Positions 4,510 through 9,097 of a stretch of 64,000 nucleotides of DNA are shown here, in pieces. This DNA comes from Promethearchaeota archaeon (lineage in GTDB: Archaea; Asgardarchaeota; Lokiarchaeia; Sigyniarchaeales; SOKP01). Position 1 is the first letter of the stretch. Each line of letters begins with the position of its first letter. Location of the stretch: contig JBHLNS010000004.1 of assembly GCA_048941285.1 (NCBI GenBank), positions 32,001 through 96,000 of the forward strand. Direction: 5' to 3'. The notes under the pieces were generated by a model, which saw only the letters and a program-made list of their open reading frames with translations, made no database searches and had not been told where the DNA came from. The translations under genes and the position numbers were made by a program.

Positions 4510-5250
4510 ATGATCGAAGAACCGTTTGTATTTCTCGGTGTTCTAGTCATATCTCTAATTATGTCAAGTTTTATAAAAAGTGATTTATCTGGAATATTAA
4601 AACCAATTGCCCTACGTTTGTGTCTTATTGGAGTTATTTTTCATGAGCTTGCTCATTATTTAATGAGTCTAGTAGTAGGAAAAATGCCAGATAGTTTTAA
4701 TATCAAATGGGAAAGTAAAAAAGATCAGTTTAAAGGTCCTTATGGATGGATTACTCTTGAAAAGCCTCCAAGTTTCCTGCAGACATTTATTATTAGCTTT
4801 GCGCCGCTATATATTAGTACATGGTTAATTTTCCTATTATGGTTTGGGGTTATATTTAATCCATACTTCAATCCTATAGTCAAAACTATTGCAGTGTTTA
4901 TATGCCTTTCCCTATTCTTCACTGCTTCACCATCAAAAGCTGATTTACAATACATTTCTTATTCCTTTAAAAAGGATTCCACCTATTCTTGGTATCAAAT
5001 TTTCTTAATTTGTTTCTCAATAGTAATTTTATGGTTCTTTTTAGTATTCACTCAAATTACACTTTTCTTGGATTTTTTTTATTATTTAGCAATAGCCGTT
5101 ATTTATTTTATGTTAAAATTTTCATTTATCGGATTAAGAAATATAACACTTAAAATTCAATCAAGAAATTTCAAAAAACCCGAAGAAATTAAGTTTAAAA
5201 GATTTTCTCGTCAACATTATAAACCAAAAAAGCCATGGAAAGAAAAATGA
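4510..5250 (+). CDS. Membrane zinc metalloprotease (M50-like, HExxH)
   Basis: HELAH next to a TM segment, FAPL and SPSKAD motifs, several hydrophobic helices. Confidence 0.7.
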   Translation: MIEEPFVFLGVLVISLIMSSFIKSDLSGILKPIALRLCLIGVIFHELAHYLMSLVVGKMPDSFNIKWESKKDQFKGPYGWITLEKPPSFLQTFIISFAPLYISTWLIFLLWFGVIFNPYFNPIVKTIAVFICLSLFFTASPSKADLQYISYSFKKDSTYSWYQIFLICFSIVILWFFLVFTQITLFLDFFYYLAIAVIYFMLKFSFIGLRNITLKIQSRNFKKPEEIKFKRFSRQHYKPKKPWKEK

Positions 5251-5273: not shown

Positions 5274-5618
5274 ATGAAAGGGTACTGTTATATTGCGTTA
5301 ATTATTGGATTTTTTATCTTCTATCAGCAAAATCCTATCTATGCCATCGTTATTATCGCATTATTTATTGGGGTATATTTATTTTTCAAATCAAGATCAT
5401 CAGGTTCAAATAGAAGCATATTAGGTTTTTTTAGTGGGAGAAATACGCAACAAGATAATAGAATGGATGATTTAATTACATTAATGATGATACAGCAATT
5501 AATGAATTCATCCTCTCAGAGTAGCGATAATCGAGGAGGAAATGATAAAAAGAAGGAACAAGACGAACAGATTGATAAAATAAAACAAGAAGTTCTCGAA
5601 TTACTTGAAGAAGATTGA
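5274..5618 (+). CDS. Small membrane protein with C-terminal coiled coil
   Basis: Two N-terminal TM segments, polar tail; overlaps the next gene, so operonic. Confidence 0.65.
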   Translation: MKGYCYIALIIGFFIFYQQNPIYAIVIIALFIGVYLFFKSRSSGSNRSILGFFSGRNTQQDNRMDDLITLMMIQQLMNSSSQSSDNRGGNDKKKEQDEQIDKIKQEVLELLEED

Positions 5619-6330
5619 AATGCAAGCAGATTTAGAGTTTTTTGAAGAAATCCGACAGTTATTACATTATCATAACATTGTTTCTATTTCAGGAGAATCT
5701 GGTACGGGAAAGACAACCCTTGCACTTCACTTAATAGGGAATCTATTAACACAGAAAAAACCATATATAGCCTCATGCATATGGATTCAAGCAAGTGAAA
5801 GATTTCCGATCAAACGGTTAACGCAAATTTTTGAAGATACATCTAAAAGATTGGAATATATAAAAAATAATACATATCTTCTACCACAAAAGGGACTAAT
5901 CCATACCTATGAAGAACAAATTTCAAGAATTCGAAAAATAATAGATTTAACATCCAATAACCCACCTTCTCTTAAATATATAGTCATTGATAATATTTCA
6001 CACCATTTACGTTACAAATTAACTCAATTTAATAATCCAAAAGATATTTTACCTATACTAGATGACTTTTACGAGACGCAACTTATGCCACTCATTTTAT
6101 TTTGTAAGCGAAATGAGATATCCTTGATATTAATTCATGAAGTTACTTATATCCCTACACTCCAAAAAATTAGACCCTTCTTTTATAAGTTATATGATAG
6201 AATTAAGACAATTGATATTGTTTTAAGTAAGTTTAATAATAACAAAAAGATGATTCTAGATTTATTTTTTAACGAATTAAAGTGGACTTTTCAATTTAGT
6301 TTAGAGCAAAAAGGTATAATAATGATATAA
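5605..6330 (+). CDS. RadB/Rad51-paralog-like RecA-family ATPase
   Basis: Walker A GESGTGKT, Walker B IVIDN; no N-terminal HhH domain. Confidence 0.75.
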   Translation: MKKIEMQADLEFFEEIRQLLHYHNIVSISGESGTGKTTLALHLIGNLLTQKKPYIASCIWIQASERFPIKRLTQIFEDTSKRLEYIKNNTYLLPQKGLIHTYEEQISRIRKIIDLTSNNPPSLKYIVIDNISHHLRYKLTQFNNPKDILPILDDFYETQLMPLILFCKRNEISLILIHEVTYIPTLQKIRPFFYKLYDRIKTIDIVLSKFNNNKKMILDLFFNELKWTFQFSLEQKGIIMI

Positions 6331-6440
6331 TTTCTAAAGATGATTACAAATTTCTACTAATCCAAATTTCAATAATTTTATTAAATAAATTTTATATAAT
6401 GACTTTTCTTCTTAATCGTTGATAATAAAATATAAATTTA

Positions 6441-6656
6441 ATGATTAATATGAGAAGGGAGGTAATAAAAGGACTTTTAATCGTGGGTATAATTATTTTC
6501 TTAATTATGGGGGTGGTCTTCATAATTGGGTTCTCTATAATAGCCTGAGGTCATATTCTAATTGAATCTCCTATTCCTGCAATTATAAGTTTCTTAGTTG
6601 CTGGAATTTTAATTGCAGTTTATGTAATTTTTTATAGGGAATCTAAAAGAAAATAG
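6441..6656 (+). CDS. Small two-TM protein with one in-frame TGA (6546-6548): candidate selenoprotein, or a nonsense-mutated gene
   Basis: Manual translation MINMRREVIKGLLIVGIIIFLIMGVVFIIGFSIIA-[TGA]-GHILIESPIPAIISFLVAGILIAVYVIFYRESKRK-TAG; SECIS-like hairpin downstream. Confidence 0.55.
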
Positions 6657-6680
6657 AATCTATTTAATATTCAGGTTTAA

Positions 6681-6747
6681 TCCGAGAAAAATGATTCCAA
6701 TAAAAAAATAGTAGTTATTGGATGATAATCCCTGCAAGGGAGTCGGG
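6681..6747 (+). promoter_or_regulatory. SECIS-like kink-turn hairpin in the 3' UTR
   Basis: AUGAU (6691-6695), perfect 8-bp stem UCCAAUAA/UUAUUGGA (6696-6703/6715-6722), A-rich loop AAAAAUAGUAG, 3' UGAU (6723-6726). Possible lower helix UCCGA/UCGGG. Confidence 0.55.
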
Positions 6748-6954
6748 AAAATAAATTAAAGGGTAAATATTTAATATAAATTACTAGTTAATAGAAATAG
6801 TTCATTTAAATTCCGAGAGATATCCTTGAATTTTCCTCTCATTTTTAATAATTCTACATCTAGATTTTGCTTGAAGTAAAATAAAAAAGTAACTAGATAA
6901 ATGTCTCTAACTAACCTAATTTTTCTTTAAATATGCACACTAATTTAATATTTC

Positions 6955-7353
6955 ATGGAAATAAATTCAATCAATACGGAACCTACGCCACATATTATAC
7001 ATGAACTTGTAAAGTGTGGGATTTGCAGAGATGAGATTAAACGAGGAGCCTCGATATATCAGGAAGGGCTTACTTTCGGAGTTGTCTGTGAACATTGCTA
7101 CAAAAATAATTCGCAAGAAGACCTAGAGCTGATGGCAAATATTTTTCTGGCCTATGGAGGTTATTTTGGAAAGTTAAAACAGAAAAAATTTTCTGTATAT
7201 AAGACAATAAAAAAGCTAATGGCGCAATTTCAGCCAGGTAAAGACTTGGATACCTTAATTGAGCTTAACATTAAAATGATGCATCAAGCACTTTTATATG
7301 GGGTTACTCCTCAAGAACTCATTCACGGATTAAAAATTCTTCTAAATGAGTAA
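6955..7353 (+). CDS. Zinc-finger hypothetical protein
   Basis: CGIC...CEHC motif, helical C-terminus. Confidence 0.7.
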   Translation: MEINSINTEPTPHIIHELVKCGICRDEIKRGASIYQEGLTFGVVCEHCYKNNSQEDLELMANIFLAYGGYFGKLKQKKFSVYKTIKKLMAQFQPGKDLDTLIELNIKMMHQALLYGVTPQELIHGLKILLNE

Positions 7354-7870: not shown

Positions 7871-9097
7871 ATGGCAGATTTAGATCAAGTAAAAGCAATC
7901 AATTCCCGTCAGATAAAACTACTCCAAGAAAACGGTATAAGTACTGCAGAAGCATTAGCAATGAGTCCTCACTCTATAGTTGCTTCAATTGATGGTCTTG
8001 GAGAAAAGACCGCAAAAAAGTTAATCTGGAATGCTAGGAATGCATTAGGGATGACCGATTTTACTCCTGCTGCCAAAATAGATGATAATGTTGAATACAT
8101 TACAACAGGGTCCGCTGAATTAAATCGAATTTTAGGTGGTGGGTTTCAAACTGGAAAATTGACTGAGGTATATGGGCCATTTAAATCCGGAAAAACAGCT
8201 TTAGCACATACAATAGCAGTTACAGTTCAATTACCTGAAAAGAAAGGTGGAATTAATAGTGCTGTTGCCTATATTGATACTGAAAATACATTCTCTAAAG
8301 AAAAAATCAAAAGAATAGCTAAACGATTTGAACTGAATCCAAAAGATGTACTTTCAAAGATTTATCACGCAAGGATCTACTCCTCAGATCATCAAGCTCA
8401 AATGATCCAAAAGGCTGAAACACTTTGTAAAACTCGTGGAGTCCGGTTAATTGTCATAGACAGCTTAATGGCTTTACTACGTGCTGAGTATGTAGGAATT
8501 GGTAGATTGGCTCCTCGTCAAGCAGTTTTAAATAATATGATTCATGGCTTATCACGTATAGCAGAGATATATAATTGCGCAGTTTTACTTACTAATCAAG
8601 TAGCTACAAGAATGATGGGTATGTTTTCAGCTGATGATGCTATAGGTGGTAATATCCTAGCTCATGGTTGTCATTTCAGAGTAATGTTTAAAACAAAAGG
8701 ATTCTCTTCTAATAGCTCACTCCAACGGAGGGCTATTATAGTTGACGCACCAGATCTACCACCAGACGAAGCTGAGTTCTATATCACAGGAGTAGGCGTT
8801 GCTGATACCGATAAAGTCGAACTTTCTGAATCTACAGGTTTAGATTTCGAAATTGAAACTCTATATGAAGAAAATGACTCTAAACAAGAAGTTAATGAAT
8901 CTGAAGAAGAGATTTCTCTATTAAATGTGAAAGGTATTGGTAAAGGGACTTTAGAAAATTTAAAGACCCGTGGGATTCTTTCTGTTTCAGATTTAATAGC
9001 AGCAGACCCAGAAGAGCTCTCAGCAAGCATATCGGGAGCTTCGGCAAAGATGGTGAGTGAGTGGCAAACCAATGCTAGAGCACTAATTAATATTTAA
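7871..9097 (+). CDS. radA: DNA repair and recombination protein RadA with additional C-terminal HhH domain
   Basis: N-terminal HhH, FTPA oligomerisation motif, TTGS..L..ILGGG, GPFKSGKT, YIDTENTF, LIVIDS, LTNQV; acidic linker then VKGIGKGT HhH. Confidence 0.88.
   Translation: MADLDQVKAINSRQIKLLQENGISTAEALAMSPHSIVASIDGLGEKTAKKLIWNARNALGMTDFTPAAKIDDNVEYITTGSAELNRILGGGFQTGKLTEVYGPFKSGKTALAHTIAVTVQLPEKKGGINSAVAYIDTENTFSKEKIKRIAKRFELNPKDVLSKIYHARIYSSDHQAQMIQKAETLCKTRGVRLIVIDSLMALLRAEYVGIGRLAPRQAVLNNMIHGLSRIAEIYNCAVLLTNQVATRMMGMFSADDAIGGNILAHGCHFRVMFKTKGFSSNSSLQRRAIIVDAPDLPPDEAEFYITGVGVADTDKVELSESTGLDFEIETLYEENDSKQEVNESEEEISLLNVKGIGKGTLENLKTRGILSVSDLIAADPEELSASISGASAKMVSEWQTNARALINI

Follow-up and report, generated by a model that had tools for sequence, protein, structure and literature searches.

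A probable new family of small membrane selenoproteins in Lokiarchaeia with a Lokiarchaeia-type SECIS element behind the gene

The selenocysteine (Sec) insertion sequence (SECIS) elements of Lokiarchaeia, known as lokiSECIS, are defined in the main text of Mariotti et al. 2016 (PMC4989117) by an AUGA motif, a 9-bp stem, an apical loop of 11 nt, a GA or AA after the stem and a position close behind the gene. The first five bases of the loop are described there as mostly A and its last base as G, usually within AG. Asgard selenoproteins were searched by homology by Huang et al. 2024 (PMC11227280), whose main text lists seven families, described as soluble enzymes or redox proteins. We report here on a stretch of 64,000 nt (the window) from Promethearchaeota archaeon, which corresponds to positions 32001-96000 of contig C36 (JBHLNS010000004.1) in genome G000 (GCA_048941285.1), an assembly of 101 contigs and 3.55 Mb that is 94% complete and has 29.7% G+C. 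A reading frame at 6441-6656 on the forward strand of this window contains a single in-frame TGA and is followed by a lokiSECIS element. In our view it is very probably a genuine, previously unannotated selenoprotein gene that belongs to a new family of small membrane proteins and uses the known lokiSECIS decoding. The genes already known to have a lokiSECIS (HdrA, VhuD/FrhD, VhuU/FrhA, a peroxiredoxin-like (Prx-like) protein and SelD) share the decoding signal with the window gene, whereas their products are soluble redox enzymes and the members of the present family are two-helix membrane proteins that occur in tandem arrays with up to three Sec in one loop. An earlier reading of this DNA from its letters alone (the sequence-only reading) had remarked that the known Lokiarchaeia families are soluble and not tiny membrane proteins, and no similarity to any of the seven listed families was found for the window protein.

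SELENOK and SELENOS are small, membrane-anchored proteins with one helix; their single Sec faces the cytosol close to the C-terminus, and their SECIS with an AUGA/GA core lies in the 3' untranslated region (UTR). The window protein is likewise small and membrane-anchored with a single proposed Sec and a 3'-UTR SECIS built on the AUGA/GA core, but it has two helices in place of one and its Sec is located in a predicted outer loop. The resemblance is one of analogy only; the loose analogy drawn by the sequence-only reading stands on these terms, and a homologue was found by Pfam for none of 20 family members. A prokaryotic point of comparison is SaoP, which the part of Haft 2022 (10.1101/2022.07.06.499078) considered here presents as a bacterial ATP-binding cassette permease selenoprotein of 268 amino acids whose database entries stop short at the UGA and whose dimerisation is proposed to join two Sec for metal binding. 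Both would be integral membrane selenoproteins of prokaryotes with database truncation at UGA. SaoP differs in using a bacterial in-frame SECIS and in that its Sec occupies a gating position within the membrane domain, and the two proteins have no sequence relation. The words 'membrane' and 'transmembrane' are absent from the main texts of Huang et al. 2024 (PMC11227280) and Mariotti et al. 2016 (PMC4989117). In the portion of a 2026 review considered here, which gives 19 genes as the largest published archaeal selenoproteome, 'membrane' is used for bacterial proteins only and no such family is added; the same portion-limited statement holds for Sun et al. 2021, which adds none. Full-text literature searches, which covered the main texts of the surveys, returned no study of small archaeal selenoproteins of the membrane.

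The gene and its predicted product have the following features in window coordinates.

6441-6656, + strand: coding sequence including the TAG stop, 71 amino acids with TGA36 read as Sec (ATG 6441, TAG 6654-6656)
6546-6548, + strand: in-frame UGA, the proposed Sec36 codon, motif A-U-G-H (IIA-U-GH)
6471-6527, + strand: predicted transmembrane helix 1, residues 11-29 (Kyte-Doolittle mean 3.25 in the best 19-residue window)
6573-6629, + strand: predicted transmembrane helix 2, residues 45-63 (Kyte-Doolittle mean 2.70)

The frame was found to be as the sequence-only reading had described it, with one TGA only, situated between two hydrophobic helices, and with basic residues at both termini. Its true start may be Met1 or Met4. 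In the standard list of open reading frames (ORFs), the gene is represented by its N-terminal piece of 35 amino acids alone. Assembled contigs of the independent runs X2 and X4 span the TGA without any difference, while the site lies outside the coverage of runs X3 and X6. No significant match to the read-through protein or its family was found in Pfam, NCBIfam, PHROGs or the PDB sequences, and the Pfam threshold was reached by none of the 20 family members. Phage_holin_3_6 (PF07332) came nearest with 18.6 bits against a gathering score of 28.4 and E<=1 in five of the 20, and was set aside as a compositional likeness of two-helix proteins.

The element behind the gene is a three-way junction with the following parts.

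6682-6746, + strand: complete Lokiarchaeia-type SECIS in the 3' UTR, 98.5 bits to the covariance model R1 described below
6682-6686, + strand: 5' strand of the outer (lower) helix, paired with 6742-6746 (CCGA/UCGG here)
6691-6695, + strand: 5' side of the SECIS core, AUGA (6691-6694) and the U of the U.U pair
6696-6722, + strand: upper stem of eight Watson-Crick pairs, UCCAAUAA (6696-6703) with UUAUUGGA (6715-6722)
6704-6714, + strand: apical loop of 11 nt, AAAAA...AG, AAAAAUAGUAG
6723-6726, + strand: 3' side of the SECIS core, U, GA and U (UGAU; GA at 6724-6725)
6729-6741, + strand: 3' mini-hairpin between the core and the outer helix, three of its four pairs covarying
6742-6746, + strand: 3' strand of the outer helix, paired with 6682-6686

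The AUGAU, the 8-bp stem, the A-run in the loop and the UGAU pointed out by the sequence-only reading are present at 6691-6726. All the published lokiSECIS features are found here, namely the AUGA, the stem spacing, the loop, the GA and the position behind a TGA-bearing coding sequence, which agrees with the earlier description of a eukaryote-like SECIS in the 3' UTR. The stem comprises nine positions per side at the published spacing, made up of eight Watson-Crick pairs and a U.U at the base. Two caveats that had been attached to the hairpin did not survive the comparison: its short stem is a defining lokiSECIS trait and no weakness, and the lower helix, formerly considered weak, is a conserved helix of 4-5 bp (6682-6686/6742-6746) that closes the junction and is supported by covariation. 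The gap between TAG and AUGA is 34 nt and the distance from TGA to the element 145 nt, so that gene and SECIS together span ~310 nt. The lokiSECIS elements of hdrA and frhD in this genome have a U-A under the stem, whereas the window element has a non-standard U.U, as do 44 of 62 elements.

These 62 elements were aligned by fitting to the covariance model. A total of 95.0% of the cells were paired and compensatory changes were observed in sixteen of the seventeen pairs, with 142 compensatory cells against 31.9 +/- 8.0 after shuffling (none of 500 shuffles reached the observed number) and at most 27 in slid controls. Covariation was found at all eight pairs of the upper stem, and all five pairs of the outer helix vary on both sides, with variants such as CCAA/UUGG and CUGAA/UUCAG. 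RNAalifold recovered the identical 17 pairs, and five covarying pairs were already present in a nine-sequence MAFFT alignment. AUGA is found in 58 of the 62 elements, and GA follows the stem in 58 and AA in the remaining four; the apical loop has 11 nt in 51, begins with AAAAA in 30 and ends with AG in 56. The window SECIS is the third-best scoring of the 62, and its 80 nt fold on their own into the same three helices (z = -1.87; 8 of 200 shuffles as good).

The sequence-only reading had proposed a comparison of the hairpin with elements of the same genome. For this we used covariance model R1, built solely from the window element and the eight copies beside homologues in two sister genomes. 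Searched against the whole genome, R1 gave three further matches with E-values of 3.6e-11 to 2.1e-5, all directly behind known selenoprotein genes, and the next match had E = 0.3. Matches were located at C4:47144-47223 behind hdrA (four TGA) and frhD (two TGA) with 55.9 bits, at C67:9246-9327 behind hdrA (two TGA) with 52.1 bits, and at C1:88122-88202 behind the Prx-like gene (NWUSHC) with 36 bits. The window hairpin belongs to one class with these elements, and we identify it as a SECIS of this organism's own kind. On contig C43, the apical loop of the frhD SECIS is one base off that of the window. The three-way junction and its mini-hairpin recur in the G000 elements of selD, hdrA, frhD and the Prx-like gene. 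Every G000 lokiSECIS examined, including those at L111, L112, L113 and L114 (hdrA-frhD, hdrA, Prx-like and frhD), was observed to have the outer helix and a mini-hairpin of the approximate form CCYNGNNNRGG after the GA. The main text of the 2016 lokiSECIS paper (Mariotti, PMC4989117) uses neither the term 'junction' nor 'lower stem'.

When the published lokiSECIS features were turned into a search descriptor, it gave eleven matches in the 3.55-Mb genome, the window site among them, against 0-2 in each of five block-shuffled genomes, and seven of the eleven lie at most 34 nt behind ORFs with an in-frame TGA. A stop-free run of 35 codons follows 8562 of the 135553 TGA triplets in the genome (6.3%); with this background and the descriptor counts, a chance origin of the arrangement is unlikely. 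No SECIS family was found by Rfam in the window or, at E<=10, over 6400-6900, which is explained by the report that published Rfam and SECIS models miss lokiSECIS (Mariotti et al. 2016, PMC4989117, main text). An Rfam match to the C/D-box snoRNA SNORD79 at 6779-6853 on the minus strand (21 bits, E = 0.83) is well under the gathering score and probably due to chance.

The same Rfam result could be turned to another account, in which the hairpin is a general kink-turn RNA (an L7Ae-binding, C/D-box-like, terminator or stability element) and any read-through is independent of it. An AUGA/GA core can mark any kink-turn, the Rfam search returned only weak partial C/D-box matches (sR46, E = 8.1, 6686-6701) and no SECIS family, and some copies of the element lack an upstream TGA-bearing ORF. 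However, significant R1 matches in the genome occur only behind selenoprotein genes, genuine lokiSECIS elements are reported to escape the same models, and the element behind a homologue that has lost its Sec (L094, below) carries a stem mismatch and a 10-nt loop, as fits decay after Sec loss. We therefore regard a general kink-turn RNA as quite improbable at this site, and the assignment to the SECIS class is kept in what follows.

The genome contains the machinery for Sec that the sequence-only reading had asked for. A tRNA-Sec (59.4 bits) adjoins SepSecS (376 bits) on contig C52, both over their cut-offs, and an EFSec-like gene lies 4 kb away on the same contig. A PSTK-like gene was found on C94. 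There are two selD genes with one TGA each and two frhD genes with two TGA each. The EFSec-like and PSTK-like genes fall below the curated cut-offs. TGA ends 181 of the 1454 long open frames and is therefore a normal stop in this genome, and the tRNA-Sec is the sole tRNA with a UCA anticodon that ARAGORN found in the incomplete set of this assembly.

From the sequence data we infer that the ribosome reads UGA36 as Sec. The 3'-UTR SECIS, with its kink-turn-like AUGA/GA core, nine-position stem, A-rich loop, mini-hairpin and outer helix, would recruit EFSec and Sec-tRNA(Sec), and the same machinery would serve HdrA, FrhD/VhuD, the Prx-like protein and SelD in this organism. The gene with its SECIS offers a compact test bed for how eukaryote-like Asgard elements work without SBP2.

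The read-through protein gave seven matches at E<=1e-3 in a search of 61 genomes, and an in-frame TGA was found in six of the seven. Orthologues with the same TGA and 69% and 60% identity occur in syntenic loci of two sister genomes, whereas the paralogues have 25-38% identity. The family is a fast-diverging one, and its genes for small two-helix proteins are arranged in tandem, with nine in G007 (six with a TGA in the loop) and five in G028 (all five with a TGA); the window genome has a single array member where its sister genomes have five to nine. One SECIS was found per one to three array genes. The main texts of Mariotti et al. 2016 (PMC4989117) and Huang et al. 2024 (PMC11227280) describe such a case in hdrA-frhD, where one element is common to neighbouring genes.

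In an alignment of 20 members the Sec column is the sole nearly invariant one, with 17 U, two C and one S. A wider alignment has U in 34 DNA-verified members at this column, together with C in four, S, G and P in one each and W in seven. All 34 distinct DNA-verified TGA ORFs have the TGA in one and the same column, and the residue that follows is Gly in 23 of 35 ORFs, the usual motif being [A/S]-U-G. The homologue check suggested by the sequence-only reading thus came out as a site at which TGA, or in a few cases Cys, is kept. Family proteins are 61-87 residues long. Four paralogues have Cys at the main Sec column; within the subfamily of the window gene itself, no orthologue with Cys turned up. 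A further paralogue has a second TGA inside helix 2, which is also present in a metagenome relative and is replaced by Cys in the G028 orthologue.

Searches extended to larger sets gave the same picture. A profile search of 135 genomes of the taxonomic family, carried out independently of the SECIS, returned 25 matches, of which 22 have a TGA and the other three are known Cys or Ser paralogues; each of the five matches from outside the training set has one TGA. On low-GC metagenome contigs, all eight elements follow a small two-helix ORF with a TGA. Twelve pattern-scan matches were set aside (five of 13 on genome contigs and seven of 14 in metagenomes), being of higher GC, bacterial or unrelated, with neither an A-rich loop nor a small membrane ORF. 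Strong R1 matches were found in 26 of 54 genomes of the genus, and among 30 new ones, 28 of them assessable, 21 lie behind a two-helix ORF with a TGA in the loop. The other assessable matches comprise one behind a one-helix ORF of the UGC type, one behind frhD, two behind Sec-less paralogues and three with no clear ORF. At the level of the class and with R1 at E<=1e-9, the element occurs in 89 of 126 genomes of this taxonomic family against none of 24 genomes of six other families. A second genus has two members, one of them with three Sec (LUGUGGU). Three TGA within a few loop residues were seen at L103 of G112 (LUGUGGU) and at L086 of G006 (STUYLAUGRLAU), the start of L086 being ambiguous.

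Selection was compared on the two sides of the UGA. When ten pairs of orthologues or near-paralogues were pooled, the ratio of nonsynonymous to synonymous change (dN/dS) was 0.37 upstream of the TGA and 0.29 downstream of it, where the synonymous proportion (pS) is 0.323 and the nonsynonymous proportion (pN) 0.113. Within the window subfamily the three pairwise comparisons gave 0.05, 0.18 and 0.64 after the TGA, and third codon positions hold 17 of the 24 differences after the TGA in the best pair. By this measure the codons after the TGA appear to be translated. Were UGA36 a true stop, the product would be a one-helix peptide of 35 residues followed by a chance or remnant frame; one homologue has a public form of 34 amino acids (P0015), and by chance 6.3% of the TGA triplets in the genome precede 35 stop-free codons. 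Such a reading is very improbable, given that the frame is open past the TGA in 34 of 34 DNA-verified members, that constraint after the TGA is as strong as before it, and that the members keep a second hydrophobic helix and a basic C-terminus. A pseudogene, in which a recent TGG>TGA or TGY>TGA change struck a small ORF in decay, would suit a genome with one member where its sisters have five to nine, and the G000-G007 pair does show the weakest constraint after the TGA (0.64). Yet the same TGA is found in orthologues of 60-69% and paralogues of 25-38% identity and is kept in independent assemblies, and the window SECIS ranks third of 62, which leaves decay with hardly any probability. The conserved TGA, the SECIS class, the machinery and the selection on the downstream codons all favour the proposal of the sequence-only reading that UGA is read as Sec in a new small membrane family.

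Several observations weigh against a selenoprotein gene at this locus. The EFSec-like gene scores 239.7 bits against a cut-off of 242.25 and the PSTK-like gene 153.9 against 290.5, and ARAGORN finds 13 tRNAs only, with no tRNA-Trp among them, an incomplete set that weakens the exclusion of a suppressor tRNA. The 62-element alignment was fitted to the model, so that the structure is favoured by construction, and the thermodynamic signal is modest (z = -1.87 for the 80 nt and -0.41 for the stretch 6657-6770). Selection is uneven, dN/dS after the TGA being 0.64 between the window and G007 and reaching 0.86 and 2.06 in two of the ten pairs. A syntenic two-helix homologue of 64 amino acids behind a P-loop NTPase gene (L094, on G003:C22) lacks both Sec and Cys (…GVLYGGRPL…). 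It is followed by an element with a mismatch in the stem and a loop of 10 nt, as though the SECIS had decayed once the Sec was lost. Three strong R1 matches have no clear ORF upstream, and an orphan copy is present in L026. At the Sec column W is found in six library proteins, in one case at both Sec sites, and a genuine TGG is conceivable in these entries; a DNA-verified divergent paralogue in L088 aligns a true TGG (Trp) at this column.

SECIS copies without a recognisable small ORF upstream were located at L026:608-687, L074:562-641 and L097:101-181, all on the minus strand. The L074 and L097 copies and the L088 site are preceded by a conserved stretch with the translation ...GDTPGPRFE..., which was considered as a tRNA on account of a T-arm-like appearance and dropped, since neither ARAGORN nor the Rfam gathering scores gave anything.

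The tryptophan entries lead to the rival with the most to be said for it, that UGA36 encodes Trp or another standard residue through a suppressor or near-cognate tRNA or a local change of code, with a hairpin unrelated to Sec. Trp is common at membrane interfaces, and the incomplete tRNA set, the six W proteins and the TGG paralogue may all be counted on this side. The six proteins (P0007, P0008, P0009, P0011, P0012 and P0013) are among eleven found in an exhaustive profile search of 1.84 billion representative proteins, and all six come from source contigs of at most 1060 nt. Two TGA-bearing loci (L062:1016-1249 and L068:533-751) are present in the public collection, letter for letter, as readings under genetic code table 4 with W at the site. 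Thirteen such table-4 readings were looked up; these two are present and eleven are absent. With these matches and the short source contigs, we read the W of the six library proteins as a probable gene-caller artefact. The 34-amino-acid form P0015, apparently cut at the TGA, is the cluster representative for one of these two loci, and the contig given for it matches that of the locus in length. For P0009, a search of the 135 genomes gave relatives of 56-57% identity at best. The alignment of the loop of the L088 paralogue is uncertain, and a SECIS still lies behind the gene.

The DNA-verified members number 34 with TGA against one with TGG, and among orthologues in this set TGA/Cys interchange is present while no TGA/TGG interchange was seen. 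TGA is moreover a normal stop in this genome, the sole UCA-anticodon tRNA found is the tRNA-Sec, and the TGA ORFs are tied to an element that is otherwise found only behind known selenoprotein genes. A standard residue at UGA36 is accordingly considered improbable, and the Trp caveat of the sequence-only reading holds to the extent of one true TGG paralogue, the two W entries checked on DNA being TGA under table 4. A word-indexed search of the public collection returned Sec-less paralogues only, three of them NCBI records named 'hypothetical protein', and the Ser paralogue P0002 had no match of at least 0.9 in a protein atlas. Public collections thus hold genes of this kind cut at the UGA or given Trp by a wrong genetic code, and in either form they escape searches; where such a library offers a Trp 'homologue', it may be an artefact of table-4 calling on short AT-rich contigs.

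Taking UGA36 as a Sec codon, the product would be a membrane helical hairpin with both basic ends in the cytoplasm and Sec36 in a short outer loop, a few residues past helix 1. Summed over 33 members, the N-termini contain 87 Lys and Arg residues, the loops 32 and the C-termini 90, and in 31 of the 33 the loop has fewer than the termini; this count leaves out an alternative-frame ORF of L068 and one member in which too little sequence precedes the U. Under the positive-inside rule, this distribution suggests that the Sec loop faces outward. MerE and MerF are proteins of ~70-80 residues with two helices, and their function rests on Cys pairs. The present family resembles them in size and in its two helices, and its Cys paralogues have CxxxxC(P) in the same loop, but most members have a single Sec with no partner Cys, and Pfam and NCBIfam show no similarity to the Mer proteins. 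No mer gene stood out among the neighbours that were inspected. By the reasoning used for SaoP, the protein could hold a selenol on the outer side of the membrane for redox chemistry or the binding of soft metals, and oligomers might bring two Sec together; this function is put forward tentatively. A Sec on the outer membrane face of a strict anaerobe would raise a new question on the use of selenium.

The gene is located in a conserved syntenic block that encodes a polytopic membrane protein of 246 amino acids with a HELAH motif and no Pfam family, a membrane protein of 114 amino acids, a P-loop NTPase (nSTAND3/AAA_22) and a protein of 132 amino acids with CxxC pairs and no Pfam family.

4510-5250, 5274-5618, 5605-6330 and 6955-7353: ORFs of the conserved syntenic block
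7871-9097: RadA

These neighbours (the P-loop NTPase, RadA and four proteins without a Pfam family over threshold) offered no functional clue.

The family adds one gene to the selenoproteins of the window genome and six to those of a sister genome. It is conceivable, though rather doubtful at present, that Lokiarchaeia have a hidden repertoire of micro-membrane selenoproteins with arrays, shared SECIS elements and exofacial selenols that act in an extracellular redox or soft-metal system. This would cover the two-helix family and a one-helix type (...UGC or CxxUG) with up to three Sec per loop, and if true it would mean a use of selenium unlike that of the known archaeal selenoenzymes and Asgard selenoproteomes well beyond the seven published families.

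Candidates of this second tiny type have one N-terminal helix and then a TGA (...GGDGUGC..., ...GGGTUGC..., ...CLPUG... and ...CGUGY), each followed by a lokiSECIS. They were observed at C65:189-501 of the window genome (L107:189-501, minus strand) and at L098, L099 and L105; the C65 candidate has no Pfam match and its SECIS scores 41.9 bits to R1. A separate selenoprotein candidate, not assigned to any type and without a Pfam family, is an ORF of 112 amino acids at C24:5603-5938 of the same genome (L108:304-639, minus strand); it contains two adjacent TGA (VVHADUUADVM), and an AUGA_AA-type lokiSECIS follows it at a distance of 8 nt.

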